From: Syntrophorhabdaceae bacterium
GTDB taxonomy: Bacteria > Desulfobacterota > Syntrophorhabdia > Syntrophorhabdales > Syntrophorhabdaceae
Length of the DNA stretch: 64,000 bases
Reading direction: 5' to 3'
NCBI GenBank assembly: GCA_035541755.1
Contig: DATKMQ010000063.1
Span: forward strand, 13,364-77,363
Below the pieces are notes generated by a model. The model saw nothing but the letters and a program-made list of their open reading frames with translations, had not been told where the DNA came from and made no database searches. Both the position numbers and the translations under genes were made by a program. Below, in pieces: positions 3,458 through 45,573 of the stretch (the first letter of the stretch is position 1; every line of letters starts with the position of its first letter).

Positions 3458-4786
3458 ATGATGGACTATGATGTGAAGGATATGAAGCTCGCCGACGCTG
3501 GTTTGGAGCGCATCCAGTGGGCTGAGAGAAGGATGCCTGTATTGAAAAAGATTGAGGAACGATTCAAGAAAGAAAAGCCGCTGAAAGGCGCGAGGATTTC
3601 CTGTTGTCTTCACGTGACCACGGAAACGGCAAACCTCGTGAAAACGCTGAAACAGGGCGGGGCCAGCGTGGCGGTCTGCGCGTCCAACCCACTGTCCACT
3701 CAGGACGACGTGGCAGCGGCCATCGTGAAGCACTTCAAGATTCCAACCTATTCAATAAAAGGTGAAAATGAGAGGCAGTACTACGAACATATTACGAAAG
3801 CGCTCGCTTTCATGCCCAACATTACCATGGACGATGGGGCCGACCTGGTCGGTGCGCTCCATATGATAGCCCTCGAAAAATATGACGCGCTTCATGACGC
3901 CATCAGGAATTGGGTCAAGAAACTCGATGCCAAGTCGAAAAAATCTCTGGTGGAGGGTGTTGCGGGCTCCATGGAGGAGACAACAACCGGTGTGATCCGC
4001 CTGAAAAGTATGGAGAAAGAAAATATCCTGCGCTTCCCCGTGGTGGCCGTGAACGATGCGCAGACCAAACACATGTTCGACAACCGCTATGGAACAGGCC
4101 AGAGCACGATCGACGGCATCTTGAGGGCGACAAACATCCTCTTTGCCGGGGCCACATTCGTTCTTGCCGGCTACGGCTGGTGCGGCAAGGGAGTATCTAT
4201 GCGGGCCAAAGGGCTTGGCGCCCACGTCATCGTCACAGAGGTCGATCCGCTTCGCGCGCTTGAAGCACACATGGATGGTTTTGAGGTCATGGAGATGGAC
4301 AAGGCAGCGAGGCTCGGGGATATTTTTGTCACAACCACCGGTGACATCCACGTTATCAGGAAAGAACACTTTAAAAAGATGAAAGACGGCGCAATTGTGG
4401 CCAATTCGGGCCACTTCAACGTGGAGATAGATATCGACGCGTTAGAGAAGATGAAGAAGTCGAAGAGGAGATTCAGAGAGTTCATCGATGAATACACGCT
4501 CACAGACGGAAAGAAAATATTTCTCCTCGGCGAAGGACGCCTTGTCAATCTCGCTGCCGCCGAAGGCCACCCCTCGGATGTCATGGATATGAGTTTTGCC
4601 AACCAGTCACTCTGCTCCGAATACATGTGGAAGAACGCGAAGAAGCTGGAGAAAAAGGTCTATTCCGTACCCAAGGAGATTGACCAGAGAGTAGCAATGC
4701 TCAAACTTGCGGCGTCCGGCGTTACTATCGACAGGCTGACAAGCGAACAGAAAAAATACCTCACATCCTGGGAGATGGGCACATGA
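3458..4786 (+). CDS. ahcY: Adenosylhomocysteinase
   Basis: 442 aa. '[11 protein letters not shown]', NAD-binding '[12 protein letters not shown]' and '[10 protein letters not shown]'. Confidence 0.95.
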
Positions 4787-9320: not shown

Positions 9321-10217
9321 TTGGATAATAATGAACAACCTTTATATAAAGTGCCAACTATTGAGGAAATACGAGATGCAAGAAAAAATAGGATAGTAAT
9401 AATGCTTTATGCTTTTGGAGATGAAAGTCACGACCAAAAAATGAACAGATTTTACGCTGTATCGGTTATTGTTGGAACGCAAGAAGAATGGGACAATTTA
9501 GCAATTTCTTGGAATAAACGCATAAAGGGCATCGCCTTTCATGCTTCCGATTGTGACTCTGATCTTAATAAATACCAGAACAATACCCACGAAGAAAATA
9601 AACAGCTTTACTGTGATCTGACCAACATGCTTGCGGAAACTAAATTGGTTGGTTACGGTACCGCCATAGATATAGAAAGTTTTAGAAGTTATTTCCCCGA
9701 ACGTGCGGACGATATTCCATATCTTTGTTTCCATTTTGTTATCGGCCATTTTGTTAGGATTGCATCTCGGTTAACGCCACAAGAAAAAATTTCCTTCACT
9801 TTTGATATAAACACAAAAACAAATCCTGGAACCGCTGCTCTGTACCAATGGTTAATAAGTTTGCCGGAATGGCAAGATCAATATGCTAAGTGCATTGATT
9901 CTGTGACGTTTGCTACAGATGAGGACAGGGTTGAAATACAAGCAGCAGACCTGTATAGCAGAGAGATAATGAAATATTACGATGAGTACTGTACGGGTAA
10001 GCGTGATTTACGAAAATCTATTCAAGCGTTGTTCGATACAGGAAGATATAAGTGTGATTTAATGGATAGAAAATTCATTGAAAACTGGAAAAATGAATGT
10101 GACAGCGCGGAAGTATCTAACGATTTATATAATGAGTGGTTATTGAAGAATAGATTAAAAGATAACGCTCCCAACAGGTATAAATTTCTTATCAATACAT
10201 CGGAACTATGGTATTGA
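9321..10217 (+). CDS. DUF3800-domain protein (IS passenger gene)
   Basis: N-terminal 'MLYAFGDESH' (DES motif) and C-terminal 'EIQAADLYSREI' (QxAD motif) are the two DUF3800 hallmarks. The ORF track starts at TTG 9321. ATG 9402 (downstream of the predicted TSS, with AGGA 8 nt upstream) is the more likely start. Confidence 0.75.
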   Translation: MDNNEQPLYKVPTIEEIRDARKNRIVIMLYAFGDESHDQKMNRFYAVSVIVGTQEEWDNLAISWNKRIKGIAFHASDCDSDLNKYQNNTHEENKQLYCDLTNMLAETKLVGYGTAIDIESFRSYFPERADDIPYLCFHFVIGHFVRIASRLTPQEKISFTFDINTKTNPGTAALYQWLISLPEWQDQYAKCIDSVTFATDEDRVEIQAADLYSREIMKYYDEYCTGKRDLRKSIQALFDTGRYKCDLMDRKFIENWKNECDSAEVSNDLYNEWLLKNRLKDNAPNRYKFLINTSELWY

Positions 10218-10223
10218 CGAAAT

Positions 10224-10406
10224 TCATTGAGGATGTTTTTTTTTCATAATAATGGCACAGGCTTGCTCAAACCTTTCGTCTGTGCCTTTTGTGTGTAGCT
10301 CTTTTGCTTTTTCTATGAAGCGCATAGATTCTTCTTCGTTTCTTATCTCTACGTTTTTCTTTTTCGGCTTTTCTTTTTTCTTCTTCATAAATCCCCTTAT
10401 CTTCAA
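10224..10406 (-). CDS. Hypothetical Lys-rich small protein (60 aa; 54 aa from internal ATG 10388)
   Basis: The ORF begins with a TTG that overlaps the transposase stop (TTGA) and has an internal ATG at 10388. No recognisable domain, and coding status is uncertain. Confidence 0.3.
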   Translation of the reverse strand: MKIRGFMKKKKEKPKKKNVEIRNEEESMRFIEKAKELHTKGTDERFEQACAIIMKKKHPQ

Positions 10407-11350
10407 GCAGGCGTCGTATAGGTGAGACGCTTGCCGACTACGCCCAACAATGCCTTGTCTGCTCTTTGCTCATCATCAACGCCCAACTTTACCCTGTTAT
10501 TGTATCTGAAATCGAACTCCGCAAGGTATCTGTGAAGATGTTGTTTGCCGCAATGATGATACACGCCGTTGATGCCACGCTTCAAGATGCTGAAATAGCC
10601 CTCGATGCTGTTTGTGGTGATCTTTTCATCGCCTTCTATGCGAACATACTCATACTCGCTATGGTTCACTTGTGAGTGTTTTCGATTTGCGCCTACGCTC
10701 TCCAATACCGTAGATTCATCGGTTATCAGATGAGCGTTCTCAGCAACCATTTCTTCAACGATAGGCTTCAAGTTCTTTGCTGTGACTCGTTGCACGTGGA
10801 AAGAACGAACAGAGCCGCCACGCTGTAACACAGAGACAACAGCCGCCTTATTATCGAATGGAGATAGCCTGTCTTTCGGACGTTTCCCTGGCTTAACTGC
10901 GTGTGAGCCTGTACGGAATTTACCGCCGACATAAGTTTCATCCATTTCAACGGGGCCATAGAACGGGCCTTCTGGATGCTGTTCCATTGCATATCTGATT
11001 CTGTGGGTCATAAACCAAGCTGTTTTAAGCGTAACGCCAAGAGTGCGGCTCAATTGGTTCGCGCTAATCCCTTTCTTTGAAGTACACATGAAATACATAG
11101 CCTGTAACCAATATCTTAATGGAATGTGGCTATCTTCAAAAATAGTCCCGATCTTCACCGTGAACGGCTTGCGGCAGGCATAGCACTTGTAAAGACCGAT
11201 TCTATAAGTTTTCCCATTGAGCTTGCCGCTTCTCCCAATCGTACCGCAATGAGGACACACGGGGCCATTAGGCCAGAGCTTCGATTCAACAAACTTGTAG
11301 GCTTCTTCCTCATTGTGAAAGCGTTCGGCTGATATTATTGATTGGTTCAT
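10403..11350 (-). CDS. IS1595-family transposase
   Basis: N-terminal Zn-ribbon 'CPHCG...YKCYACRKPFT', an HTH-like 'GISANQLSRTLGVTLKTAWFMTHRIR' and a DDE domain beginning 'EMDETYVGGK'. SD AAGGAG lies 8 nt upstream of the ATG. Confidence 0.9.
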   Translation of the reverse strand: MNQSIISAERFHNEEEAYKFVESKLWPNGPVCPHCGTIGRSGKLNGKTYRIGLYKCYACRKPFTVKIGTIFEDSHIPLRYWLQAMYFMCTSKKGISANQLSRTLGVTLKTAWFMTHRIRYAMEQHPEGPFYGPVEMDETYVGGKFRTGSHAVKPGKRPKDRLSPFDNKAAVVSVLQRGGSVRSFHVQRVTAKNLKPIVEEMVAENAHLITDESTVLESVGANRKHSQVNHSEYEYVRIEGDEKITTNSIEGYFSILKRGINGVYHHCGKQHLHRYLAEFDFRYNNRVKLGVDDEQRADKALLGVVGKRLTYTTPA

Positions 11351-11374
11351 TGTGCTATCTCCTTTCTATTCTTA

Positions 11375-11403
11375 AGTGTAGCACATGCAGGTGGGGATGT
11401 CAA
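11375..11403 (-). promoter_or_regulatory. Putative sigma70-type promoter, TTGACA-17-TACACT, for the transposase
   Basis: -35 TTGACA (complement of 11398-11403) lies inside the right IR. -10 TACACT is the complement of 11375-11380. Confidence 0.5.
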
Positions 11404-11416
11404 GTATAATATTACC
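11392..11416. repeat. Right terminal inverted repeat
   Basis: The reverse complement reads GGTAATATTATACTTGACATCCCCA, 24/25 identical to 9279-9303. Confidence 0.85.
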
Positions 11417-11424
11417 AAGATTTC
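11417..11424. repeat. Target-site duplication, right copy (AAGATTTC)
   Basis: Perfect 8-bp direct repeat of 9271-9278, immediately outside the right IR. Confidence 0.8.
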
Positions 11425-11540
11425 CCTTTATACTCTTTTCTCTTTTGGTTAAAATGTTGGCCGATCCTTTTGCCTGTCGTGAATGACGCAAAAAGGATAA
11501 TGATAGATGTAATAAAGCATATCCTTTCCGGTCAAAGCCA

Positions 11541-15062: not shown

Positions 15063-15214
15063 TCCCCAAGTGTAAGACGCGGTTTGCCAGTCATCCCGAG
15101 AGGGATCGAAGAGGCGCTCGCGGCTCTGCGGGCATCGCGATGCTCCTGTCTATATCCGCCGGTTTTTGTCACAAATCCATGCCACAGGTAGACGGGGCGA
15201 CTTAAGCGTCCCGG

Positions 15215-15385
15215 CTAACTCCTGTACATCTTTAAGAGTTCGTCTATTTGGTCCTGCGAGAGGTTCTCGCTTCCCTCCGCGCATTCGACGGCACTCTTCT
15301 CTTCAGCCCCCTCCAATTGCTGTGTTCCCGCTACGATATCGCCGAACAGGGCGTCGAGGTCATTTTGAGAAAAGAACTCATCCAT
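15215..15385 (-). CDS. Small acidic protein (56 aa) with two FliM-N-terminus-like 'LSQxxIDxL' motifs
   Basis: MDEFFSQNDLDALFGD...ENLSQDQIDELLKMYRS. Start chosen at ATG 15385, which has an AAGGG SD and lies downstream of the promoter at 15446-15474. The longer ORF-track start (15490) lies upstream of that promoter. Confidence 0.5.
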   Translation of the reverse strand: MDEFFSQNDLDALFGDIVAGTQQLEGAEEKSAVECAEGSENLSQDQIDELLKMYRS

Positions 15386-15445
15386 ATAGACCCTTAGTAA
15401 GCATCTGAGATAATTATCGGCAAAAGTAAAAAAAATAACAGTAAT

Positions 15446-15474
15446 ACGATAAAAAAAGTTGATTTTTTTGTCAA
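15446..15474 (-). promoter_or_regulatory. Putative promoter TTGACA-17-TATCGT for the small acidic ORF
   Basis: -35 is the complement of 15469-15474 and -10 is the complement of 15446-15451, in an AT-rich intergenic tract. Confidence 0.4.
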
Positions 15475-15627
15475 GGTAAACAAGCGGCATAGCTTTCGCG
15501 CACCATGCGCTCCACCTTTTCGCCCCCGCACGATTGCGTGAGGGATGCCGCAGGGCTTTGGGTTAAGCCGTGGGTCAAGGCCACATTAAACAGGGTAACG
15601 ACAAAGGCTCTGCTTTGCCTGAACATG

Positions 15628-15656
15628 TTGTAACCGGTGGCCAATTCGTATAGAAT
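15628..15656 (+). promoter_or_regulatory. Putative promoter TTGTAA-17-TAGAAT; predicts a leaderless receiver-LpxC mRNA
   Basis: The -10 ends 8 nt before ATG 15665. There is no Shine-Dalgarno in 15657-15664 (ATTGCACC). Confidence 0.4.
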
Positions 15657-15664
15657 ATTGCACC

Positions 15665-16918
15665 ATGCACAAGGTATTGATCATCGATGATGAAAAAGAC
15701 ATCCTTGATACGCTCTCGTCCATTCTTCAGGATGAGGGGTTCTCGGTTCTCAAGGCGGTAGATGGGGAGGAAGGGCTCGCCTTCTTTGAGCGCGAAAAGC
15801 CGGACATCGTCCTTCTCGACGTATGGATGCCCGAGCTCGATGGCATTCAGGTTTTGAAAAAGATAAAAGAACAGGACAAGGATGCTATCGTCATCGTCAT
15901 ATCGGGACATGGAACCATATCCACGGCAGTAGAGGCCGTGAAGATGGGGGCCTTTGATTTTCTTGAGAAACCGCTCTCTATAGACAAAGTGTTGGAGGTG
16001 GTCTTAAGGGGCCTCGGCACGGAGTATAAATCCAAAGGCAAAACGGAAGATTTCAAACTGAAAAGTTCGAAAGGATTGAGACAACTCAAACAGAGAACAA
16101 TCGGAAAAAGCATTGTCGTCTACGGTGTGGGACTCTTCTCCGGAGTCAAGACGGGCATGATTCTGCTTCCCGTGCCGGAGAACACCGGCATTGTCTTCGA
16201 GCACATCCCCGACGGGGAGCGCGTGCCGGCCTACATCGATTACGCCTTTTCCGTAGGCAACAACTCTTCGGTAAAAGGCAAGAACTGCGCAGTCCGGACC
16301 ATCGAACATCTGCTTTCAGCGTGTCATATGTGCGGCATCACCAACCTTCTCGTAAAGGTAAGTGAGGAGATACCGAACTTCGACGGCTCGGCCATCGAAA
16401 TCTGCAACAAGATCGAAGAGTCCGGTGTGGTGGAGCAGGATGAAGGCATAGAGCCTTTGAGGATCACGGAACGAATAGAGCTGACAAATCTTGCCCAGGG
16501 CAAGCTTCTTTCCATCGAGCCCTCGGAGACTTTCGAGGTAGAATACGAACTGGAACAGGCCGCACCCATCGGCAGGCAGACGTATCGCTTCTCGGGTAAC
16601 AGGCAATCCTACGTGAACGACATTGCGCCTGCACGAACATTCAGCTTTATCAAGGATTTTGAGCAGCTCGCTAAGAAAGGCCTGGGTTCGGGAGGCAGGG
16701 TTGACAACGCTATCCTCAATGTGATTCTCTTAAACGACAACGGCGTCATCAACACAAAACTCAGGTTTCAGGATGAGTTCGTGCGCCACAAGATCCTCGA
16801 TCTCATCGGTGACATCTATCTCCTCAACAGGCCAGTACTCGGCAAAATCAGGGCAAAACAGACGGGCCATCTCGAAAACATAGCCCTGGTCAAAGAACTG
16901 AAGAGGCGCTTTCTCTGA
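15665..16918 (+). CDS. Response-regulator receiver domain fused to UDP-3-O-acyl-GlcNAc deacetylase (LpxC) domain
   Basis: REC: 'LIIDDEKD', 'VLLDVWMPELDG' and 'FLEKPL'. LpxC: 'KQRTIGKSIVVYGVGLFSG', 'RTIEHLLSA', 'ARTFSF', 'FQDEFVRHKILDLIGDI' and 'TGHLEN'. The Zn and catalytic residues are conserved relative to E. coli LpxC. Confidence 0.88.
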   Translation: MHKVLIIDDEKDILDTLSSILQDEGFSVLKAVDGEEGLAFFEREKPDIVLLDVWMPELDGIQVLKKIKEQDKDAIVIVISGHGTISTAVEAVKMGAFDFLEKPLSIDKVLEVVLRGLGTEYKSKGKTEDFKLKSSKGLRQLKQRTIGKSIVVYGVGLFSGVKTGMILLPVPENTGIVFEHIPDGERVPAYIDYAFSVGNNSSVKGKNCAVRTIEHLLSACHMCGITNLLVKVSEEIPNFDGSAIEICNKIEESGVVEQDEGIEPLRITERIELTNLAQGKLLSIEPSETFEVEYELEQAAPIGRQTYRFSGNRQSYVNDIAPARTFSFIKDFEQLAKKGLGSGGRVDNAILNVILLNDNGVINTKLRFQDEFVRHKILDLIGDIYLLNRPVLGKIRAKQTGHLENIALVKELKRRFL

Positions 16919-18457: not shown

Positions 18458-18907
18458 ATGCCTGATGCGATTGAAACGATTCTCAAGAAACATGGACGGA
18501 CTTCCGATGAATTGATCCCTATCCTGCAGGACGTCCAAAAAGCAATCGGCTACGTTGGTCCGGAATCAATATCAAAGATATCCCGCCATTTGAAGATCTC
18601 GGAAAACCAGATATTCGGCGTCTCGTCTTTCTACGCCCAATTCCGATTTACCGAGCCGGGACGTCACTCGGTCAAAGTGTGTCTCGGCACAGCCTGTCAT
18701 GTAAAGGGGGGCGCCACCCTGCTCGAAATGGTTGAGCGCGACCTCGGCATCACCTGCGGGGAGACCACCGAAGATAAACGCTATGACCTGGAACGGGTTG
18801 CCTGTCTCGGATGTTGCGCCCTCTCTCCCGTCGTACAGATTGATCGCGATATATACAGCAGGATGTCGGTAAATAAACTAACGGAGCTCTTAAAAAAATA
18901 TGAATAA
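18458..18907 (+). CDS. NuoE/HydC-like thioredoxin-fold [2Fe-2S] subunit
   Basis: 149 aa. Cys pattern 'VKVCLGTACHV...VACLGCCALSP'. Confidence 0.9.
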   Translation: MPDAIETILKKHGRTSDELIPILQDVQKAIGYVGPESISKISRHLKISENQIFGVSSFYAQFRFTEPGRHSVKVCLGTACHVKGGATLLEMVERDLGITCGETTEDKRYDLERVACLGCCALSPVVQIDRDIYSRMSVNKLTELLKKYE

Positions 18908-20780
18908 ATTAGAGAGCAGAATCGAATCGGCGAAGAAGAAGTGGGAATCGGTTGAGAATAATAAAGAACCCATTATCTTCGTGGGCGCAGCGTCCTGTGG
19001 CAGGGCGGCAGGGGCACTGGAGCTCCTCACGGAGATCGACAACTTCATAAAAGAGGAGAACGTGAAGGCGAGGGTGGTCGAGGTCGGGTGCATCGGACCC
19101 TGTTACCTCGAACCGCTTGTGGACATTAAGATGCCGGGGCAACCGAGAGTGAGTTACAACAACGTAAACGCCAGAACACTTTCCATGATTCTGAAATCAC
19201 ACTTGATCGACGGTACGCCCCATGCAAAGCTTGCCCTCGGCCATTTCGGCGCCAAGGATTTTGACGGCATCCCGCAGTTTTATGAGCTCCCCATGTTGAA
19301 ACCTCAGGTGAGGATTGCGCTACGCAACTGTGGTCTCATCGACCCGGAAGATATAGACCAGTACCTCGCCGTAGACGGATACCGGGGCCTCGTCAAGGCC
19401 CTCGCCATGTCGCCGGATGAGGTCATAGGGGTTGTGCGGCAGGCAGGACTCAGGGGGCGCGGGGGCGCGGGCTTCCCCACGTACAAGAAATGGATGGTCT
19501 GTAGAAACGCCCCGGGCGATCAGAAATACCTTATTTGCAACGCCGATGAAGGGGACCCCGGCGCCTTCATGAACAGATCACTTATAGAATCCGATCCCCA
19601 TGCGGTGCTCGAAGGCATGCTCATCGCGGGATATGCCATAGGCGCAAGCAAAGGCATTATCTACATAAGGGCCGAATATCCGCTCGCCATAGAGCGCCTG
19701 AAGAGGGCGATTCAACAGATGAAGGAGTGCGGACTCATCGGTAAGAATATACTCGGCTCAGGTTTCAATTTTGATATCAAAATCAAGGAGGGGGCAGGCG
19801 CATTTGTCTGTGGTGAGGAGACCGCCCTTATCGGTTCCATAGAAGGCAAGAGGGGCATGCCCAAATCCCGGCCACCCTTTCCAGCCATATCGGGACTTTT
19901 TGGAATGCCCACGATTATCAACAACGTAGAAACAATGGGAACCCTTCCCAATATCGTGCGCAATGGAGCGGAATGGTATACCAAATTCGGAAAAGAAGGC
20001 AATCGGGGCACAAAGACCTTTTCTCTCGTAGGTAAGACGAGGCGTCCCGGCTTGATCGAGGTCCAACTCGGTACAACCTTGAGAGAAATCATCTTCGACA
20101 TCGGGGGGGGCGTGCAAAAAAACTTTAAGGCGATCCAGACGGGCGGACCCTCCGGAGGCTGTCTGTCCGAAGAGTTTCTCGATCTTCCCGTGGATTATGA
20201 ATCGCTCGCTGCGGCAGGCTCTATCATGGGCTCGGGGGGTCTCATCGTCATGGACGATGATACCTGTATCGTGGATGTGGCAAAATATTTCCTGGATTTT
20301 ACCCAAAAAGAGTCGTGCGGAAAGTGCGTGCCCTGCCGGGTCGGCACGAGGCACATGGTAGAAATCCTTGACAGGATTACCCACGGCGAGGGAAATCCTG
20401 AGGACCTGCTGGCACTTCGGACTTTAGGCGATACGATCAAGAAGGGTGCCCTCTGTGGTCTTGGCCAAACCGCACCCAACCCGGTTCTTACCACACTGAG
20501 ATACTTCAGGAACGAATATCTCGAGCACGTCAAGGACCATCGCTGCAAGGCAACTGTCTGTAAGGACCTCATCGAGTATCGCGTCATAAAGGAGAAGTGC
20601 ACGGGATGTCAGTCCTGCGTGAGGGTTTGTCCTACCGGGGCCATAACCGGACCAAGGTCTGAACCTCACAACCTTGATGCGACAAAGTGTATAAAGTGTC
20701 GCTCCTGTTACGAAATTTGTCGCTACGACGCCATTGCGGGCGATGCTATCGTGATCCGGACCGCGGAGAAGAGATCATGA
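18900..20780 (+). CDS. NuoF/HydB-like NADH-binding flavoprotein subunit with extra N-terminal [2Fe-2S] and C-terminal 2x[4Fe-4S] domains
   Basis: 'GLRGRGGAGFPTYKKW' (FMN), 'ICNADEGDPGAF', 'ESCGKCVPCRVG', and C-terminal 'CTGCQSCVRVCP' plus 'CIKCRSCYEICR'. 8-nt overlap with the upstream gene. Confidence 0.9.
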   Translation: MNKLESRIESAKKKWESVENNKEPIIFVGAASCGRAAGALELLTEIDNFIKEENVKARVVEVGCIGPCYLEPLVDIKMPGQPRVSYNNVNARTLSMILKSHLIDGTPHAKLALGHFGAKDFDGIPQFYELPMLKPQVRIALRNCGLIDPEDIDQYLAVDGYRGLVKALAMSPDEVIGVVRQAGLRGRGGAGFPTYKKWMVCRNAPGDQKYLICNADEGDPGAFMNRSLIESDPHAVLEGMLIAGYAIGASKGIIYIRAEYPLAIERLKRAIQQMKECGLIGKNILGSGFNFDIKIKEGAGAFVCGEETALIGSIEGKRGMPKSRPPFPAISGLFGMPTIINNVETMGTLPNIVRNGAEWYTKFGKEGNRGTKTFSLVGKTRRPGLIEVQLGTTLREIIFDIGGGVQKNFKAIQTGGPSGGCLSEEFLDLPVDYESLAAAGSIMGSGGLIVMDDDTCIVDVAKYFLDFTQKESCGKCVPCRVGTRHMVEILDRITHGEGNPEDLLALRTLGDTIKKGALCGLGQTAPNPVLTTLRYFRNEYLEHVKDHRCKATVCKDLIEYRVIKEKCTGCQSCVRVCPTGAITGPRSEPHNLDATKCIKCRSCYEICRYDAIAGDAIVIRTAEKRS

Positions 20781-22978
20781 CAAAAGAAAAGAGACTATCC
20801 ATTACCATCGATAACAGAAAAGTTGAAGTGAAACCACATCTCACCATATTGCAGGCCGCCAAGGAGCATGGCATCTACATACCGTCGCTCTGTACTCTCG
20901 AGCACCTTCCCTCGTATGGTGCGTGCAGGCTTTGTGTCGTTGAGGTGGATGGCTTGAGGGGCTTTCCTACGTCCTGTACTACGCCGGTGGAAGACGGAAT
21001 GGTCATCAGGACAGATACCGGGGAGATCAGGACACTTCGCCAGGAGGTGCTCAAACTACTCTTGAGCGAACATCCGGCCAGTTGTCTGTTCTGCACCGAG
21101 CAGGGCGAGTGCAAACAATACCAGGGCACCATAAGGAAGGTAGGGGTAACCACAGGCTGCCGGTACTGTCCAAACGACGAGCGCTGTGAACTTCAGCTCA
21201 TTACCGAAAGGATCGGTCTTGCGGACACATCATACCCTGTTTACTATCGCAACTTTCCGGTAGAGAAATTCGATCCGTTCTACGATAGAGATTACAATCT
21301 CTGCATTCTCTGCGGGCGCTGTGTTCGTGTATGTAGCGAGGTGCGTCTCAACGGAACGCTCAGCTTCAAACAGCGAGGCAAGGCGACGACCATCGGCCCG
21401 GCCTTCGACCGCTCCCATCTGGATGCCGGCTGTGAATTCTGCGGGGCCTGCGTGACCGTTTGCCCCACAGGAGCGCTCAGTACAAAGACGAGTAAATGGT
21501 ACGGTAAGCCTGACGCAGAGGTCAAAACAACCTGTCTTTACTGTCCCGTGGGCTGTGAGCTTATGCTTCAGATCAAGCATAACGAGACCATAGACGTACT
21601 CCCCAATTACGATTCGCCATTGGACAGGGGTCTTCTCTGTGTGAAAGGGCGTTTCGCTGTGCCCGAATACGTGTGCAGCTCCGAACGCCTCTCACACCCC
21701 CAACGTATGACGCCGGTGGGTTATGAAGACATCTCCTGGGATGAGGCTTTAGACCTGGCGGCGCAGAAGTTGTCCGAAACAAGACCCGAGGACATGCTTT
21801 TCGTTGTTTCACCTCAGCTCACCAATGAGGATCTCTTCATGGCCTGCCATCTGGCCAGAGGCGCGATCGGTACAGATGAGATTCTCTCCCCTGTGATTTC
21901 TGATTTGGGGGAGGACCTTGTCCCATTTCTCAACCTTACGTTGGCGGCAAGTCCCTTCGACGTTATCGATTCAGCCGACACAATCGTCGCGGTCGGATTC
22001 GATGCAACATACGGTTTTACGCCGCTTGGCATCAGAATTAAAGAGGCCGCGAAAGGGGGGGTAGCGCTTATAACTCTCAATGGCTATGGATCCAACCTCG
22101 ATATGCTGTCCGAGGAGGCCCTGTGCTTCGACGCTACGAAATGGCCGTCAGTCCTGGATAAGTTCATGGGCAAGACGCCTGGCAACGGAAAAGGCCGCAG
22201 GTCGTCCCACAAGGTGATTGTCATGGGAGAAGAGGCGATCTTTTCACGAAAGCGTGGCGAGCTTTTTGAGAAGATCATGAAGATGAAGGAATACTTCGGC
22301 TGGAATGTGATCGTCGCGCATCCTTATACGAACCTTCTCGGGCTTCTGTCCATGGGGGCTTTCCCCGGTATTAACAGAGGAGAGCTGCTCCGTAATGGTT
22401 CCAGGGGGACGACCCTCACGCTTAAGAAGGGTCTTTTGGCGTCTGTGAATATGAGCAAGCCGCGAAAGGCTGGCTATGTCATCGGAGAAGCACAATTGGA
22501 AAATATGCCTCACTGCGAATTCCTCATCTACCAGAATGCGTTGCCGCCCGCATCTTCACGCAAGCCGGATTTAATCCTTCCTTCAAGCCTGTTCAGCGAA
22601 ACGCCCGGCACGGTCGTGAGCATGGAGGGAAGGGTGTTGCAGGTGCGCAAGGCCACGGAACCGTATGCAGAATCCAGGCCTGACTGGTGGATTATGAGTA
22701 AGATTTCAGAAAAGATCAGTAAGGATGCCTTAAAATTCCGATCGCTCTCTGCAATACAGGCGGAAATAAAGAAACAGATGGCGGGTTTCTTCGATGGAAA
22801 AAGCAGACTGGAATTTCGGAAAATCGGCGCAAGACAGACCGATCTGGGCGCGAGCGGTACACGTCGGGCGGGACCGGGGACTTCGCGCAAACCGTGGCAA
22901 CAGATGTACCGGGGGATCGATCTTCAGGATATTGTCCCGGGCATGCGGGTCATAGAGCAAAGGAGATGCCATGAATAG
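20777..22978 (+). CDS. NuoG/FdhA-like Fe-S subunit with a truncated, apparently cofactor-less molybdopterin-oxidoreductase domain
   Basis: [2Fe-2S] 'CRLCVVEV', 'HPASCLFCTEQGEC', 'CILCGRCVRVC', 'CEFCGACVTVCP' and a Mo-type Fe4S4 'TTCLYCPVGC...LLCVKG'. Start set at ATG 20777 (ATGA overlap with the upstream stop), not the 20687 ORF-track start. Confidence 0.85.
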   Translation: MTKEKRLSITIDNRKVEVKPHLTILQAAKEHGIYIPSLCTLEHLPSYGACRLCVVEVDGLRGFPTSCTTPVEDGMVIRTDTGEIRTLRQEVLKLLLSEHPASCLFCTEQGECKQYQGTIRKVGVTTGCRYCPNDERCELQLITERIGLADTSYPVYYRNFPVEKFDPFYDRDYNLCILCGRCVRVCSEVRLNGTLSFKQRGKATTIGPAFDRSHLDAGCEFCGACVTVCPTGALSTKTSKWYGKPDAEVKTTCLYCPVGCELMLQIKHNETIDVLPNYDSPLDRGLLCVKGRFAVPEYVCSSERLSHPQRMTPVGYEDISWDEALDLAAQKLSETRPEDMLFVVSPQLTNEDLFMACHLARGAIGTDEILSPVISDLGEDLVPFLNLTLAASPFDVIDSADTIVAVGFDATYGFTPLGIRIKEAAKGGVALITLNGYGSNLDMLSEEALCFDATKWPSVLDKFMGKTPGNGKGRRSSHKVIVMGEEAIFSRKRGELFEKIMKMKEYFGWNVIVAHPYTNLLGLLSMGAFPGINRGELLRNGSRGTTLTLKKGLLASVNMSKPRKAGYVIGEAQLENMPHCEFLIYQNALPPASSRKPDLILPSSLFSETPGTVVSMEGRVLQVRKATEPYAESRPDWWIMSKISEKISKDALKFRSLSAIQAEIKKQMAGFFDGKSRLEFRKIGARQTDLGASGTRRAGPGTSRKPWQQMYRGIDLQDIVPGMRVIEQRRCHE

Positions 22979-23828
22979 AGTCATTGAAAGGACCATGATA
23001 GTTCCTAACATGCACCTCCTTGTGATTGAGGCCCCGGAGATTTCGTCAAAGGTAAGGCCGGGCCAGTTTGTCATTATCCGTGCAAACGATGAAGGCGAAA
23101 GGATACCCCTGTCTGTCGCGGACTGGAACAAAGAGCAGGGAACCGTTACCACCGTTTTCATGGAGGTAGGGGCTTCCACCGGGGCGCTTGCGTCGCTTGA
23201 AAAGGATGATGCGGTCGCCACGTGCGTCGGCCCGCTCGGAAATTCGACTGAGATCGGCCGGTTCGGTACGGTTCTCTTGATCGCTGGATGCTACGGCATC
23301 GGCAGCATCTATCCGGTGGCGAAGGAATTGAAAGCCGCCGGAAACCAGGTGATTACCGTACTCGAGGCCAGGAGTTCTTACCTCATTTACTGGGCAAAGA
23401 GGTTTGCCAGTCTCTCTGAGAAGATCTTTAGCGTAACGAGAGACGGGAGTCTCGGCATGAAGGGACATATTACGAGGCTCACGGAGATCATCCACTCCCT
23501 GCCCCAGCCTCCCGACCGAGTCATTGTGAACGGTTGCACCTATCTCATGGCCCACACATCAGAGGTCACGAGGGAACTCGGCATTCCCACGCTCGTGAAC
23601 TTAAACCCCATCATGATCGACGGGACGGGTATGTGCGGTGTGTGCCGGGTTACAGTAGGCGGTCAAATGAAATTCGCCTGTGTTGACGGCCCGGAATTTG
23701 ATGGCCACAAGGTGGATTGGAAGGAATTTCTCTCGAGACGTAAGGCGTACATGAGCGAAGAGACACTCTTTTTCAGACATAGCGAGCCCCACACTAAGGC
23801 CCATAAAGAAGGGAAGTGCCAGGCATGA
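22971..23828 (+). CDS. nfnA: NfnA-type small subunit (FAD/[2Fe-2S], sulfide dehydrogenase SudB-like)
   Basis: 285 aa. 'PGQFVIIR', 'ERIPLSVAD' and [2Fe-2S] 'DGTGMCGVCRVTVGGQMKFACVDGPEF'. Confidence 0.85.
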   Translation: MNRVIERTMIVPNMHLLVIEAPEISSKVRPGQFVIIRANDEGERIPLSVADWNKEQGTVTTVFMEVGASTGALASLEKDDAVATCVGPLGNSTEIGRFGTVLLIAGCYGIGSIYPVAKELKAAGNQVITVLEARSSYLIYWAKRFASLSEKIFSVTRDGSLGMKGHITRLTEIIHSLPQPPDRVIVNGCTYLMAHTSEVTRELGIPTLVNLNPIMIDGTGMCGVCRVTVGGQMKFACVDGPEFDGHKVDWKEFLSRRKAYMSEETLFFRHSEPHTKAHKEGKCQA

Positions 23829-25249
23829 ACGAAGAAAAAACCCCCGAAAAACAAAGCAAGATCGACCTCAATCGAAGAGACATGCCCAAACAGTCTCCAG
23901 AGATGAGGAGCCACAACTTTAGCGAGGTGGCGCTAGGTTACAACACGGAATTGGCACTCAGCGAGGCAAGCCGTTGCTTAAAGTGCAAGAAGCCGAGGTG
24001 CGTCACCGGATGTCCCGTAGAGATAGACATCCCTGGCTTCATTTCGTGCATCGTGCAAAATGATTTTTCCGCAGGCATCAAGAAACTCAAAGAAAAAAAC
24101 TGTCTGCCGGCTGTCTGCGGAAGGGTCTGCCCTCAGGAATCCCAGTGCGAATCGCAGTGCATTTTGAAAAACAAGGGCGCTGAGGTGGCTATCGGCCGGT
24201 TGGAAAGATTTCTCGCCGATTGGGAGGCACACAGCGGTCAGGTGGACGTCCCACCAAAAACCAAATCGAGCGGAAAGAAGGTGGCGATTGTGGGCTCGGG
24301 TCCGGCGGGGATCACCGTGGCCGGCGATCTGGTTCTCTTGGGCCACGAGGTTACCATCTTTGAGGCGCTTCACAGAGCGGGTGGCGTTCTCACGTACGGT
24401 ATTCCCGAATTTCGTCTGCCCAAGGCCATAGTGGCACGAGAAGTCGCCTACGTGAAAAGTCTTGGGGTAAATGTCATTACCGATTTCGTGGTGGGCAAGA
24501 CACGGACTATCGATGAACTCCTCGACGCATTCGACGCGATCTTCATTGGGACGGGTGCGGGCCTGCCCTGGTTCATGAACATTCCCGGTGAGAACTTAAA
24601 CGGGGTTTATTCGGCGAATGAGTACCTGACCCGCATGAATCTCATGCAGGGGTATCGATTCCCCCACTCTTCAACACCTATCAAGAAGCACAGGAAGGTC
24701 GCCGTGGTAGGGGGTGGAAATGTAGCTATGGATTCGGCCCGAACCGCACTCAGGATGGGGGCCGATGAGGTGCGTATCATTTATCGCAGATCCCATGCAG
24801 AGCTCCCGGCACGGCTTGAGGAAAGTGAGAATGCCGAGGAAGAAGGCGTGATTTTCAATATGCTTACCCTGCCCGTCAGATATATCGGTGACGAAAACGG
24901 ATGGCTCAAGGAGATCGAATGCCTCAAGATGGAGCTTGGCGAACCCGACGCGTCAGGCAGAAGAAAGCCCGTTGAGGTGCCAAACTCGAATTTCCGCATT
25001 GAAATGGATGCCGTGGTCTGCGCCATCGGGAACAGCCCGAACCCGCTCGTTCCCTCCACCACACCCGGCCTTGACACCACGCGCCACGGAACGCTCGTGG
25101 CCAACGAGCAAACCGGAAAGACGACCCGAAGCCGCATATGGGCGGGCGGCGACATTGTTACCGGGGCGGCAACCGTCATCCTTGCCATGGGCGCGGGACG
25201 AAAGGCGGCAAGGTCCATGCACGAATATTTGACGACAGGCGTAGAGTAA
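23816..25249 (+). CDS. nfnB: NfnB-type large subunit (GltD-like, 2x[4Fe-4S] + FAD/NADPH)
   Basis: 477 aa. 'CLKCKKPRCVTGCPV', 'CGRVCPQESQCESQC', 'VAIVGSGPAGITVAG' and 'GGDIVTGAATVILAMGAGR'. Confidence 0.85.
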   Translation: MPGMNEEKTPEKQSKIDLNRRDMPKQSPEMRSHNFSEVALGYNTELALSEASRCLKCKKPRCVTGCPVEIDIPGFISCIVQNDFSAGIKKLKEKNCLPAVCGRVCPQESQCESQCILKNKGAEVAIGRLERFLADWEAHSGQVDVPPKTKSSGKKVAIVGSGPAGITVAGDLVLLGHEVTIFEALHRAGGVLTYGIPEFRLPKAIVAREVAYVKSLGVNVITDFVVGKTRTIDELLDAFDAIFIGTGAGLPWFMNIPGENLNGVYSANEYLTRMNLMQGYRFPHSSTPIKKHRKVAVVGGGNVAMDSARTALRMGADEVRIIYRRSHAELPARLEESENAEEEGVIFNMLTLPVRYIGDENGWLKEIECLKMELGEPDASGRRKPVEVPNSNFRIEMDAVVCAIGNSPNPLVPSTTPGLDTTRHGTLVANEQTGKTTRSRIWAGGDIVTGAATVILAMGAGRKAARSMHEYLTTGVE

Positions 25250-26537: not shown

Positions 26538-28607
26538 ATGAATAACACAGGACAAGATCTTATAGAACACGAAGAACACACCAACCGGGGCCTCACCATT
26601 GACAGTAGAAAATGCCGTCTCTGTCTGTACTGCGTGCAGCTTTGCCCTTCGAAGGCCGTAAAGCTTGAAAAAGACACGATCAAGGTAATTCCTGAACGGT
26701 GTATCCTGTGTGCGAGTTGCATCAAAGGCTGTCCTCAACACGCAATGAGCCTGTATGGCGGCCTTGGTACGGTGGGAAGTGTGCTCGCCTCGGGCGCTAA
26801 GACGATCGCCTGTCTTGACCCTGCCTTTCCTGCCGCTTTTGATGCCGAGAGCCCGCGCCGATTCGTTACCGCATTGAAGAAGCTCGGGTTTACCGAAGTC
26901 TGGGAGGGGGCCTTCGGCGTGGAACTCGTAAGCCAGGCTTATAGAAGACTACTCGACAGCAATACCGGCTCCCCGCTCATCTCGTCATTTTGCCCTGCTA
27001 TTGTCTTCTACATCCAGAAATATCTACCTCAGCTCATCCCCAATCTGGCGCCTATCGTGTCCCCAATGATTGCGATAGGCAAGGTGGCGCGCCACATCAA
27101 GGGGAATGATTGGAAGACCATATATATTACGCCCTGCCTTGCACAGGTGGGGGAGAGCGTGGCGGACGAGGTAGCCGGGGTGATAGATCACGTCATCACA
27201 TTCCGTGACGTCCAGCGCATGCTTGATGCGGCAGGCATAGACCAGGGTAAGCTCGAAGAAACCGAATTTGATGGTCCGCGACCCTTTTTGGGCAGAATCA
27301 TGCCGGTGATCGGCGGCCTGAATCGAAGCATGGGTTCAAGCTTTGACGTGCTCGAGGACGAAGTAAGCGTGGCATACGGACGGCGACAGGTGATAGGCCT
27401 TCTCAATCAGCTTGCCTCCGGTTACATACGAGCGGGGTTCCTCGATCTTGTCTATTGTGACGGTTGTATTGACGGGCCCTTCATCGACAGAGAACTCTCG
27501 GTACTCGGGAGAAGACATGTTATTGCCCGATATACCAAGGGTGAGATGGCCAAACAGAATATGTCCGATGTCCACAAAGAACTCGAGAAATACCAAGGTA
27601 TCGACCTTGGTCGTGAGTTCCGTAATACGGAAGAGAAACTTACCGCGCCTTCCGAAGAAGAAATAGAAACGATCCTCAAGAAGATAGACAAGCTCCCGCC
27701 CAGCAACAACCTTGACTGCAGGGCCTGCGGATACGCGACCTGTCGTGATAAGGCCATAGCCGTTGCCCAGGGGCTCGCTGACGCACAATTCTGTCTCCCC
27801 TACCTGCTTGACCAGAGCAACAAGATCTATCAGCAACTTGAGAAGTCGCATCGCGAGCTGCAAAAATCGCATCAAGAACTCGAACATGCCCAGTATCAGC
27901 TCATCCGCACAGAGAAGCTGGCAGCCCTGGGGCAACTCGCTGCAGGTGTGGCCCACGAAATCAATAACCCGCTTGGTACCATTACTATATACGCGCACAT
28001 ACTGTTAAAGACTATGGAGACCGAAGATCCGAGACGGGATGATATCGCGCTTATCATTAACGAGGCAAACCGTACAAAAGGTATCGTTCAGGGGCTCTTA
28101 AGTTTCGCGCGCGAGACCAAGCTCAAACCGGGCGACACGGATATTAATGAGCTCCTCGAAGACGCTCTCGGGCTTCTCGTCAACCAGTCCCTGTTCCAGA
28201 ACATAAAAATAAAGAAAAATTTTGCCAAAGACCTGCCCGCCATATTTGCCGACGGGACTCAGCTTAAGCAGGTGTTCTTAAATATTGTCCTCAACGCAGC
28301 GCAGGCAATGGAAGGCAAGGGCAATCTCGCGATTACAACATGGTTGCAAAAAGACCATATAAAGATTAGGATTCGTGATACAGGCCCGGGCATTCTGCCG
28401 GAACATGTGGCAAAACTCTTCAACCCCTTTTTCACCACCAAAGAGAAGGGTACCGGGTTGGGGCTTGCCATCTCTTACGGGATTATCGAGAGGCATTCCG
28501 GCAAAATCGAAGTCGACACCGAATTGGAAAGAGGAAGCACCTTTACCATTTCCTTACCTCTGGGCAGAGACGAAAAGGATTTGCAGGACGAAACAAAGAG
28601 GCATTAA
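26538..28607 (+). CDS. Sensor histidine kinase with N-terminal 2x[4Fe-4S] ferredoxin, [FeFe]-hydrogenase-large-subunit-like domain and a CxxCGxxxC Fe-S module
   Basis: 'CRLCLYCVQLCP' and 'CILCASCIKGCP'. Hydrogenase-like strings 'SSFCPAIV', 'ITPCLAQVGE' and 'LVYCDGCIDGP'. 'DCRACGYATCRDKAIAVAQG...FC'. H-box 'AHEINNPL' and HATPase 'GTGLGLAISYGII'. Confidence 0.85.
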   Translation: MNNTGQDLIEHEEHTNRGLTIDSRKCRLCLYCVQLCPSKAVKLEKDTIKVIPERCILCASCIKGCPQHAMSLYGGLGTVGSVLASGAKTIACLDPAFPAAFDAESPRRFVTALKKLGFTEVWEGAFGVELVSQAYRRLLDSNTGSPLISSFCPAIVFYIQKYLPQLIPNLAPIVSPMIAIGKVARHIKGNDWKTIYITPCLAQVGESVADEVAGVIDHVITFRDVQRMLDAAGIDQGKLEETEFDGPRPFLGRIMPVIGGLNRSMGSSFDVLEDEVSVAYGRRQVIGLLNQLASGYIRAGFLDLVYCDGCIDGPFIDRELSVLGRRHVIARYTKGEMAKQNMSDVHKELEKYQGIDLGREFRNTEEKLTAPSEEEIETILKKIDKLPPSNNLDCRACGYATCRDKAIAVAQGLADAQFCLPYLLDQSNKIYQQLEKSHRELQKSHQELEHAQYQLIRTEKLAALGQLAAGVAHEINNPLGTITIYAHILLKTMETEDPRRDDIALIINEANRTKGIVQGLLSFARETKLKPGDTDINELLEDALGLLVNQSLFQNIKIKKNFAKDLPAIFADGTQLKQVFLNIVLNAAQAMEGKGNLAITTWLQKDHIKIRIRDTGPGILPEHVAKLFNPFFTTKEKGTGLGLAISYGIIERHSGKIEVDTELERGSTFTISLPLGRDEKDLQDETKRH

Positions 28608-29055: not shown

Positions 29056-30549
29056 ATGGCTGAGACAGCGCACATCCTGGTAGTTGATGATGAGAAGGGT
29101 ATCCGTGAAGGGTGCCGAAGGATCCTCGTCAGCGAAGGATATGCCGTTGATTTGGCGGAAAACGGGAAAGAGGCCCTGGACATGGTGCGAGCAAAACCCT
29201 ACGACCTCCTCCTTGTCGATCTCATGATGCCTGTCATGGGAGGTATGGAGCTCATGGAAGAGGTAGGGCAGATTGACCCTGAAATCATCATGATCGTCAT
29301 TACCGGTTTTGCAACGGTGGAAACCGCTGTCGACGCCATGAAGCGAGGCGCGTATGACTACATCCCAAAACCCTTCTCGCCTGACCAGCTCATCTCTGTT
29401 CTCAACAGAGGCCTTGAAAAGAGACGGCTCAGGATCGAGACGGAAAAGCTCCGTGAGGAAAGGGATCAGAAGCTCCTTGAAATAGCCAGCGAAAAATCGA
29501 AGCTTCGTACCGTGGTCAACTCAATGGCCGATGGGATCATTGTTATCAACCGCGAGGGTCAGCTCGTGCTCTTTAACCCCGCGGCGACTAAAATGCTTGA
29601 TCTCGATCAAAGACTCGAGCTCGGCAAGAGTGTCCTCGACATCATAGTGCAAAAGGATTTGCTCGACCTTATAAACAAGGCCTTTTCTCCTGATTCCTCA
29701 AGGTACACGGTTCTTTCCGAGGAGATCGAACTGACCGGGGCGGAATCAAAGACCCTTATGGTCAACGTTGCGAGGGTAGAGGACGAGATGGGCCGCGATC
29801 TCGGCGCGGTGAGCACTTTTCGCGACATAACAGGACTTAAGGAGATCGAGGAGATAAAATCGCAGTTTGTCCGGATGGTTGCGCACGAACTCAGGGCGCC
29901 TCTGGCGGCGGTGACCGGGTACCTGACGGCCTACCTCACAGGGGTAGCAGGCACCGATCCTCAGGTGAACCGCCAGATGCTGGAGCGGGCCCGGCTCAGG
30001 GCTGAGTCGCTTATCGAGCTGGTAAACGATCTTTTGCAGTTCGCGAGACTCGAATCAAAGAAGGTCGAAAGAAAAAAGGAGCTTCTCGACATATCGGAAA
30101 TTATCGTGAACACCGTAGAACTCCTAAAACCTCAGGGTGCAGGCAAAGACCTCGTCTTTGAGCTCAACATCCCGGCCAAGCTACCCTTGATCGAAGCGGA
30201 CCGGACAGAAATGGATCAACTCATCACAAACCTTGTATCAAACGCCATAAAGTATAATGTAAAAGACGGCAAGGTCGTGGTCAGCGCCACGCCGGATACT
30301 CATTTCTTGACCATTAAGGTGGCCGACACGGGAATCGGCATTGAAGAGGAGTTTCTGCCCTGTATTTTTGATGAATTCTATCGGGTGCAGGGGCCTAATA
30401 CGCGGTACACCACGGGGACCGGCCTCGGGTTATCGATCGTGAAGAAGATCGTGGAATCCAATTTCGGCCGTATCGAAGTGGAAAGTCAGGTAGACAGAGG
30501 AACTACGTTTACGGTGAAACTACCCCTCAAGGGGATGGATAGAGAATAA
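29056..30549 (+). CDS. Receiver-PAS-histidine kinase (N-terminal REC hybrid kinase)
   Basis: REC 'LVVDDEKG...LLLVDLMMP...YIPKPF', a PAS region, H-box 'AHELRAPL' and HATPase 'GTGLGLSIVKKIV'. Confidence 0.9.
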   Translation: MAETAHILVVDDEKGIREGCRRILVSEGYAVDLAENGKEALDMVRAKPYDLLLVDLMMPVMGGMELMEEVGQIDPEIIMIVITGFATVETAVDAMKRGAYDYIPKPFSPDQLISVLNRGLEKRRLRIETEKLREERDQKLLEIASEKSKLRTVVNSMADGIIVINREGQLVLFNPAATKMLDLDQRLELGKSVLDIIVQKDLLDLINKAFSPDSSRYTVLSEEIELTGAESKTLMVNVARVEDEMGRDLGAVSTFRDITGLKEIEEIKSQFVRMVAHELRAPLAAVTGYLTAYLTGVAGTDPQVNRQMLERARLRAESLIELVNDLLQFARLESKKVERKKELLDISEIIVNTVELLKPQGAGKDLVFELNIPAKLPLIEADRTEMDQLITNLVSNAIKYNVKDGKVVVSATPDTHFLTIKVADTGIGIEEEFLPCIFDEFYRVQGPNTRYTTGTGLGLSIVKKIVESNFGRIEVESQVDRGTTFTVKLPLKGMDRE

Positions 30550-40588: not shown

Positions 40589-40863
40589 GGGGTCACCCCC
40601 TTCATCCTGACAATCATGGTGACGAGCGCAGCCACGATGCCTGAGAGGCCGATAAGGAGGATACCGGCTGCTATAATGATTTCCCGTCCGGCCCCACCTC
40701 GCTTATCCGCATTCGTCGGATCGGCCTCGCCCCGTAAAGGAAGGTAACGTGCCCGCTCCTGCTCCCGAAACTGGCCCGCCGCGTGTGCTAAGATGAAAAC
40801 CGTGAGACTCGTAGCGAGCCCGACGACAAGTAACCCGATCCATATCATGTAATAGAGATTCAT
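40585..40863 (-). CDS. CcoS/FixS-like cbb3 maturation protein with an extra C-terminal TM helix
   Basis: 'MNLYYMIWIGLLVVGLATSLTVFILAHAAGQFREQERARYLPL' resembles the CcoS TM plus 'GQF(D/R)' motif. Start at ATG 40863 (ATGA overlap with the ccoO stop). Confidence 0.5.
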   Translation of the reverse strand: MNLYYMIWIGLLVVGLATSLTVFILAHAAGQFREQERARYLPLRGEADPTNADKRGGAGREIIIAAGILLIGLSGIVAALVTMIVRMKGVTP

Positions 40864-43255: not shown

Positions 43256-43272
43256 GGACCTTCAGGCCTCCC

Positions 43273-45074: not shown

Positions 45075-45573
45075 TGCGCACCTCTCCTGCACCGGATTCC
45101 TTAAGCAGTTTCCGTATCTCTTCCTGTTCGCTCCGAGAGCACGCAACAAGCACCCCGAAGCGGTCCTGAGAAAAAACCGGGTCGTATCCGCTGGCCGTGG
45201 CACGCCTCGGCAGGCGTCCCAAAAAGATCCAGGCCGCGACACTCGCAAGCACGCCTCCGAGGATAGTTCCTTCAAAGCAGACGATGACCCAGGGCACCCA
45301 GGGTAGAACCGGTTTCCCGCTCGTAATAAGGCTAAATGAAAGATGGGCATATATCGCGAGACCCAATAGCCCGAGACCACCTCCGATCCCACCCAAAAGA
45401 GTAATCAAACGAGCTCTACTCGGCCTCTTTGCCAGTATCTCATCTATCTCCGGGATATAGAGGGGAGAAAAGACCGTTTCGATCTTTCTCGCACCCGAGG
45501 TAAGACCCCGAAGGGCGAAAAGGAAATCGTCAACGTAGGTAAACAGGCCCAAAAGCCCCTCCCTATGCGCCAT
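45061..45573 (-). CDS. actD: DUF3341 membrane subunit, ActD-like
   Basis: 170 aa. 'GLLGLFTYVDDFLFALRGL' and two central TM helices. SD GGAGGA. Confidence 0.72.
   Translation of the reverse strand: MAHREGLLGLFTYVDDFLFALRGLTSGARKIETVFSPLYIPEIDEILAKRPSRARLITLLGGIGGGLGLLGLAIYAHLSFSLITSGKPVLPWVPWVIVCFEGTILGGVLASVAAWIFLGRLPRRATASGYDPVFSQDRFGVLVACSRSEQEEIRKLLKESGAGEVRNVAW

Follow-up and report, generated by a model that had tools for sequence, protein, structure and literature searches.

LpxC commits cells to lipid A synthesis and sets its rate, and the regulation of this enzyme is known in detail for a few proteobacteria only. How, then, might its activity be controlled when it is made as one polypeptide with the receiver domain of a two-component system? 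This question is raised by a gene in a 64,000-nucleotide stretch of contig DATKMQ010000063.1 (assembly GCA_035541755.1, Syntrophorhabdaceae bacterium), referred to below as the window. The gene encodes a receiver (REC) domain joined through a linker to LpxC, the UDP-3-O-acyl-GlcNAc deacetylase. An initial annotation, made from the letters of the window alone, had proposed that a complete receiver was fused to a catalytically intact LpxC and that lipid A synthesis was thereby wired to a phosphorelay. The analysis described here points to a response regulator with LpxC as its output domain. We consider it moderately probable that such a protein places LpxC under phosphorylation-dependent, post-translational control and that it was reduced from a regulator fusion belonging to an NtrY-type system. 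The REC-LpxC family is apparently undescribed.

By profile, the window protein is a member of both the receiver and the LpxC families. Its N-terminal part matches Pfam Response_reg PF00072 (residues 4-113, E 7e-31, 107.1 bits). Its C-terminal part matches Pfam LpxC PF03331 over residues 143-413 and nearly the whole model (positions 1-267 of 268; E 3e-74, 250.5 bits, cut-off 27), and it also scores above the cut-off of the NCBIfam lpxC equivalog TIGR00325 (200.1 bits, cut-off 187.25). The best PDB sequence matches to the C-terminal part are the LpxC proteins of Aquifex, Pseudomonas and E. coli (E 1e-34 to 2.5e-42), and the alignment with the Aquifex enzyme runs over its residues 4-266. For the receiver, the best PDB matches are 4D6X, the receiver of a Fis-family regulatory protein, and Brucella NtrX (5M7N). 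The top response-regulator model is NtrX NF051870, which is matched by residues 1-150 at model positions 1-146 of 452 with 136.5 bits, against a cut-off of 600. A Pfam scan of the window protein found neither an AAA+ nor a helix-turn-helix (HTH) domain, and the protein therefore belongs to neither the NtrX nor the sigma-54 activator family. In an AlphaFold2 model (mean predicted local distance difference test score, pLDDT, 76.7; predicted template modelling score 0.79), the linker is disordered, with pLDDT below 50 at residues 121-139. An identical protein (P0001) has been recorded from an NCBI Syntrophorhabdaceae metagenome-assembled genome (MAG).

Are both domains equipped to work? The open reading frame (ORF) and all of the motifs first quoted for it (LLDVWMPELDG, SGHG, EKPL, TIEHLL, ARTFSF, RHKILDLIGD and TGHLEN) are present. 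Alignment places E214/H215 of the window protein at E73/H74 of Aquifex LpxC, T325 at T179, H375/K376/D379/D383 at H226/K227/D230/D234, and H402 at H253. In E. coli LpxC, H79, H238 and D242 are the zinc ligands and E78, H265, T191, K239 and D246 the catalytic residues. All eight residues of the window protein are invariant in 35 homologues of 70-100% identity. The catalytic and zinc residues, as well as the phospho-acceptor, are also invariant in 13 divergent fused proteins of 39-61% identity. No loss of a zinc or catalytic residue was found, and the description of the LpxC part as catalytically intact was borne out. The same is true of the receiver, which was called complete on the strength of its motifs: D8, D9, D52, S80 and K102 are invariant in the 35 homologues, and the aromatic switch at position 99 is F in 34 of them and Y in the remaining one.

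Conservation along the protein distinguishes the two domains from the segment that joins them. Mean pairwise identity among the 35 homologues is 0.79 for the receiver (0.91 for its beta4-alpha5 part) and 0.76 for LpxC, against 0.32 for the linker. The receiver is thus constrained like the enzyme, and the linker behaves as a free tether. Linker length varies between 18 and 62 residues among 372 minimal REC-LpxC proteins, and the linker sequence is of low complexity. As far as can be read from sequence, both domains are intact and under equal constraint, which speaks for a functional LpxC with a functional phospho-acceptor domain tethered to it.

The C-terminal end of the protein is less telling. 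E. coli LpxC can be aligned only as far as residue 273 of its 305, so a tail of about 30 residues is absent, as had been pointed out in connection with the FtsH-dependent proteolysis of the E. coli enzyme. The absence stands, but its significance does not. The alignment with Aquifex LpxC terminates at the same point, and betaproteobacterial LpxC is likewise without a degron according to a 2025 review (PMC12444477). Since such tails are commonly absent outside enterobacteria, the missing FtsH tail cannot help to choose between explanations.

Is the fusion peculiar to this genome? A search for relatives of the LpxC domain was made in 1.84 billion representative proteins, and the matches were annotated with Pfam. 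The nearest relatives were REC-AAA+-LpxC, REC-HTH-LpxC and REC-LpxC fusions, which ranked before plain LpxC. At least 120 further clusters (90% identity) carry the same two Pfam domains and are 70-98% identical to the window protein, and a second subclade contributes 120 more REC-LpxC clusters. The profile and architecture search that the initial annotation had suggested therefore yields more than 240 clusters from multiple phyla, and not a singular oddity. Public annotations name the fused proteins LpxC or NtrX.

The fused proteins form a series of architectures. The long form, of about 700-750 residues, consists of REC, a sigma-54-type AAA+ domain, an AAA lid, a Fis-type HTH and LpxC. Intermediate forms have either a decayed AAA+ domain (650 residues) or a REC-Fis-type HTH-LpxC arrangement (about 490-505 residues), and the short forms are REC-LpxC proteins with linkers of varying length. 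The source names of this series include Nitrospinota, 'Deltaproteobacteria', Entotheonellia and Spirochaetota, and the clade of fused LpxC as a whole spans Desulfobacterota, Binatia, Acidobacteriota, Nitrospinota, Nitrospirota, Spirochaetota and Entotheonellia. GTDB species-representative genomes were also scanned with an LpxC-domain alignment, and 80 loci were kept as a sample. Among the matches listed, all 42 loci at least 42% identical to the LpxC domain of the window are fused or are frameshifted fusions (L024 and L040), and one more fused locus (L045) lies at 39-40% identity; loci with plain LpxC, or with LpxC extended by a C-terminal FabZ-like domain, are all at or below 41%. The fused GTDB loci come from Binatia, Syntrophobacteraceae, Desulfomonile, Desulfocapsaceae and the isolate Desulfopila sp. 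IMCC35006 (L047), and from Thermoanaerobaculia, Holophagae, Aminicenantes, Terriglobia, Nitrospinota and Thermodesulfovibrionia.

The long forms suggest where the receiver came from. In a 749-residue member, residues 1-450 align with residues 5-452 of the 454-residue Brucella NtrX (5M7N; E 8e-76). Both this protein and NtrX are without the GAFTGA loop that NtrC4 has at that position, and GAFTGA was found in none of the nine long fused forms in which it was looked for. Where a Walker B-like motif was found in the long forms, its Glu is replaced. The long relatives remain below the NtrX model cut-off of 600 (P0271, for example, scores 343 bits). In a neighbour-joining tree computed without support values, the fused LpxC domains form one clade in which long forms are scattered among short ones. 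The simplest reading would be a single old fusion from which the AAA+ and HTH parts were then lost repeatedly. Judged by its architecture and its relatives, the window gene is the most reduced member of a large family derived from the fusion of an NtrX-like regulator with LpxC.

Two loci had raised the idea of a second copy. One (L018), labelled Syntrophorhabdus and 51% identical, suggested two REC-LpxC types in one genome; this was set aside, as the relatives of L018 are labelled Deltaproteobacteria/Thermodesulfobacteriota. The other is in a Thermoanaerobaculia MAG (L026), where positions 4392-4691, about 1 kb downstream of the intact REC-LpxC gene, encode some 100 residues that are 63% identical to the product of that gene. 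This stretch was rejected as a second LpxC because it is a C-terminal fragment only, the result of a partial duplication or of an error in assembly.

Which sensor would act on such a receiver? Clustering of neighbouring genes revealed one conserved neighbour, a protein of about 750-790 residues whose gene immediately precedes the fusion on the same strand, at a median distance of about 20 bp (14 clustered loci). Its domains are NtrY_N, HAMP, PAS, HisKA and HATPase_c. A profile was built from this kinase and used to scan the GTDB and metagenome loci. The NtrY-type kinase was found immediately upstream of the fusion in 34 loci, comprising 16 from GTDB and 18 from metagenomes. Most of the genes behind it encode minimal REC-LpxC, and some encode the longer fused forms. 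The minimal REC-LpxC architecture of the window is encoded by 17 of the 18 metagenome loci, in most cases as a protein of 419-436 residues.

The same kinase family is also found beside lpxC that is not fused. In at least eight loci (L046, L064, L065, L069, L077, L162, L164 and L166), from Acidobacteria, Methylomirabilota/Rokubacteria, 'Deltaproteobacteria' MAGs and three metagenome contigs, a plain lpxC is followed by a kinase of this family. All five GTDB clusters of this kind that were examined continue with a REC-AAA-HTH regulator of the NtrC family, whose GAFTGA and Walker B motifs are intact and which scores best on the NtrX model, yet below its cut-off. It follows from these clusters and the fusions that an NtrY-type two-component system is tied to lpxC through gene neighbourhood in some phyla and, in other phyla, through fusion. 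Gene order and domain architecture thus link the two across phyla. The proposed wiring of LpxC to two-component signalling is upheld to this extent, by the constraint on the receiver, the 34 kinase-adjacent loci and the at least eight unfused clusters, while control of its activity by phosphorylation is the part that we infer. The word phosphorelay has to be dropped, as the adjacent partner in relatives is an ordinary two-component kinase and not part of a multi-step phosphorelay.

A mechanism can be proposed from these observations. The ancestor would have been an old fusion in which LpxC was joined to the regulator of a two-component system of the NtrY type. Between REC and LpxC, long relatives retain a Fis-type HTH and an AAA+ domain in which GAFTGA is missing. 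Shorter ones are reduced to REC-LpxC proteins encoded behind the kinase gene; in the subclade of the window, the gene would have moved away from the kinase too. What is left would be a complete zinc deacetylase that a flexible linker of about 25 residues connects to an NtrX/NtrC-type receiver with D52 as acceptor. An NtrY-type kinase in the membrane, its gene lying at another place in the genome, would phosphorylate D52, and this would change the alpha4-beta5-alpha5 face of the receiver and so alter LpxC output after translation. Most likely, the tethered receiver would dock on the catalytic domain and be released from it in the manner of CheB, or else receivers would dimerise. A flexible linker fits CheB-like autoinhibition, and its flexibility and variable length argue against rigid helical coupling. 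In this way, an envelope or redox signal would set lipid A flux with no need for new transcription. We infer here that phosphorylation changes activity, that the kinase of the source genome is of the NtrY type, and that REC-LpxC is the housekeeping LpxC of the cell.

Several observations weigh against this reading. About 45 contexts of the window subclade are available (the window, L001, L002, L085-L087, L168 and about 38 metagenome loci at least 67% identical), and an NtrY-type kinase lies near the REC-lpxC gene in none of them; the neighbours vary. The initial annotation had correctly seen that no cognate kinase is adjacent, and what it saw in the window extends to the whole subclade. The window gene is therefore an orphan response regulator. 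Three other kinases are encoded in the window (26538-28607, 29056-30549 and 57165-62951), and they score 110-150 bits on the NtrY profile as compared with about 1000 for true neighbours. They were considered as partners and rejected, since their similarity to NtrY is generic and they are not conserved near the gene beyond the closest relative. Within the enzyme, the equivalent of LpxC His19, a residue lining the active site, is Phe158 in the window protein; it is F in 13 of the 35 homologues and H in the other 22. Finally, we know of no requirement for oligomerisation in LpxC, and a dimerisation switch would therefore be without precedent for this enzyme.

A broader claim can be put forward only tentatively. 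In several environmental phyla, the cell's only LpxC may be the output domain of an NtrY-controlled response regulator; the groups concerned would be many Desulfobacterota, Binatia, part of Acidobacteriota, Nitrospinota, Thermodesulfovibrionia and some Spirochaetota. If so, this would constitute a third, undescribed mode of LpxC control beside proteolysis and activation by a protein partner, and the forms of 700-750 residues would be DNA-binding proteins and enzymes combined.

Could the fused protein instead be an accessory paralogue beside an unfused housekeeping LpxC, serving as a conditional extra copy or acting on another N-acetylated substrate? The fused LpxC domains do form a clade of their own, 34-41% identical to plain LpxC, and the Phe at the His19 equivalent would fit a changed role. 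This is nevertheless unlikely, given that the equivalog cut-off of TIGR00325 is passed and the catalytic residues are all invariant. Among the 80 GTDB loci listed, no assembly has both a fused and a plain copy, and a second full-length LpxC occurs in none of about 170 loci and nowhere in the 64-kb window. In the sample, the two forms also part along class lines inside a phylum: Thermoanaerobaculia, Holophagae and Aminicenantes have the fused form whereas Pyrinomonadaceae and Vicinamibacterales have the plain one, and Thermodesulfovibrionia are fused whereas Nitrospiraceae are plain. A slightly less probable explanation is that the receiver gates the amount or location of LpxC, by proteolysis or membrane recruitment and in place of the enterobacterial C-terminal FtsH degron, and not its catalysis. 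Stability control is a live alternative because LpxC is controlled chiefly through its level in the best-studied systems (PMC12444477). The absent C-terminal tail would fit, and the flexible Lys-rich linker could serve as a protease entry site. Absence of the tail outside enterobacteria proves nothing, however, and no protease or adaptor gene is conserved beside the fusion in the contexts examined.

That the receiver is a vestige of the ancestral regulator, no longer signalling and attached to a constitutive enzyme, is very improbable. Kinase adjacency has indeed been lost in every context seen in the window subclade, and the AAA+ and HTH domains had already gone along the lineage. A domain without function should have drifted as the linker did; the receiver has instead remained at least as conserved as the enzyme (79% and 76% identity, with the linker at 32%) and has kept D8, D9, D52, S80 and K102 unchanged. 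An assembly or gene-calling artefact that merged two adjacent genes deserves mention, as the source is a metagenome-assembled contig and frameshifts are seen in L024 and L040; it is already refuted by the recurrence of the same continuous frame in hundreds of independent assemblies (NCBI, JGI, ENA and Logan), including that of the isolate Desulfopila sp. IMCC35006.

If the window protein is a response regulator with LpxC output, how does it compare with known systems? Response regulators with enzymatic output include CheB, PleD/WspR (REC-GGDEF) and RpfG (REC-HD-GYP), and they offer plausible precedents for phosphorylation relieving inhibition or driving dimerisation. The window protein resembles them in having an N-terminal receiver, a flexible linker and a hydrolytic or catalytic domain. 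It differs in that its output is a lipid A biosynthetic enzyme, which was not found as the output of a response regulator in the literature searched. As for LpxC itself, MurA activates the enzyme in Pseudomonas. In its fold-defining sequence and in its catalytic and zinc residues, the window protein agrees with canonical LpxC, but canonical LpxC of enterobacteria is subject to FtsH/LapB proteolysis, with further mechanisms specific to other lineages (PMC12444477), whereas the window protein is without the C-terminal degron. LpxC also occurs fused in LpxC-FabZ proteins (NF009667); here, by contrast, what has been added is a signalling module and no enzyme of the pathway, and it sits at the N-terminus.

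NtrYX has been connected to lpxC before. In C. crescentus, NtrYX inhibits lpxC transcription (PMC12444477). In R. sphaeroides, deletion of ntrYX raised lpxC mRNA 8.8-fold and increased lipopolysaccharide (LPS), an effect described as indirect (PMC7240162). The resemblance to NtrY/NtrX is that the receiver and the start of the linker of the window protein score best on the NtrX model, that the adjacent kinases of relatives have NtrY architecture, and that long relatives align end to end with Brucella NtrX, both being without GAFTGA. The difference is that known NtrX affects lpxC through transcription, while here the enzyme itself is the output domain; in addition, the window protein has no AAA+ or HTH domain, scores 136 bits where the cut-off is 600, and is not encoded beside an ntrY gene. 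A related lineage also has a two-component system devoted to lpxC. For the D. vulgaris regulator DVU2934, lpxC was the only target identified by DNA-affinity-purified-chip (DAP-chip), and the same study noted that lpxC adjoins the orthologous regulator operon in Syntrophobacter fumaroxidans (PMC3333781). The S. fumaroxidans neighbourhood echoes the lpxC-kinase-regulator clusters described above in its gene order. The DVU2931-DVU2934 system differs from the fusion in exerting transcriptional control through separate proteins. The words 'fusion', 'fused' and 'receiver' are all absent from the 2025 review on how lipid A is regulated (PMC12444477), and no description of a receiver-LpxC or NtrX-LpxC fusion was found in the literature searched.

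A receiver-LpxC fusion with an adjacent kinase in many lineages would amount to testable post-translational two-component control of outer-membrane synthesis. It would also explain in physical terms the reported connection of NtrYX with lpxC or LPS in alphaproteobacteria, which has been puzzling. The series from full regulator fusion through part-decayed forms to the minimal REC-enzyme would illustrate a path by which fusion with a pathway enzyme turns a transcription factor into a regulator of enzyme activity. These points would be relevant to the fields of outer-membrane biogenesis and two-component signalling. The coordinates of the gene and its parts are collected in Table 1.

Table 1. Features of the REC-lpxC locus, in nucleotide positions of the window.
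Feature	Position	Strand	Details
REC-linker-LpxC ORF	15665..16918	+	complete, 417 residues plus stop; response regulator/enzyme
Receiver (REC), NtrX/NtrC type	15665..16012	+	residues 1-116; D8/D9, D52 (nt 15818-15820), S80, F99, K102
Lys-rich flexible linker	16013..16087	+	residues 117-141
Full-length LpxC (UDP-3-O-acyl-GlcNAc deacetylase) domain	16088..16915	+	residues 142-417; without C-terminal tail
LpxC residues E214/H215	16304-16309	+	
LpxC residue T325	16637-16639	+	
LpxC residues H375/K376/D379/D383	16787-16813	+	
LpxC residue H402	16868-16870	+	
Upstream intergenic region	15063..15664		602 bp; gene stands alone

The REC-lpxC gene lies between deaD, upstream, and ychF, 227 bp downstream, and promoter-like matches in the upstream intergenic region are weak. 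In the 89%-identical relative (L002), an NMO/FabK-like gene that is absent from the window is found between deaD and the REC-lpxC gene. A small divergent ORF in the intergenic region (15215-15490, minus strand) contains two SQxxhDxLh motifs resembling CheY-binding peptides. It was considered as a partner and rejected, as the region can still be recognised in L002 but its frame is broken there, and it is treated as a relic. Other neighbours recur in the subclade. In two lineages (L001 and L087), genes for SpoIID-like, NTP_transferase and APH-type kinase proteins are found a few kb downstream of the window-type gene, and the latter two may be a MurU/AmgK-like pair, to go by their Pfam families. 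A NUDIX gene is convergent near the window-type gene in three lineages.

Of the three kinases of the window named above, the protein encoded at 26538-28607 combines a [FeFe]-hydrogenase large-subunit-like domain, which has Fe-S motifs, with HisKA and HATPase_c, and thus has the make-up of a hydrogenase-like sensor kinase; it is syntenic in L002. It is followed by a REC-PAS-HisKA-HATPase hybrid kinase (29056-30549). A set of NuoE/NuoF-like, formate-dehydrogenase-like and NfnAB-like genes (18458-25249) lies just upstream of the two. The third, at 57165-62951 on the plus strand, is a protein of 1928 residues with CheB methylesterase and CheR methyltransferase domains, several PAS/GAF domains, HisKA, HATPase_c and a C-terminal receiver.

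Elsewhere in the window, a stretch of low GC content (0.44-0.47) at 9321-11500 contains an unannotatable ORF of 298 residues and an IS1595-family transposase (10403-11350, minus strand). L002 has an MscS-type channel gene at this position, to which the 298-residue ORF is unrelated. The region 40860-53895 (minus strand) encodes cbb3-type-like haem-copper oxidase proteins (FixO-like and COX1), a NorB-like oxidase with a cytochrome c domain, and an alternative-complex-III-like module with a molybdopterin-like subunit and two NrfD proteins. These oxidase genes contrast with a family known for anaerobic syntrophy.

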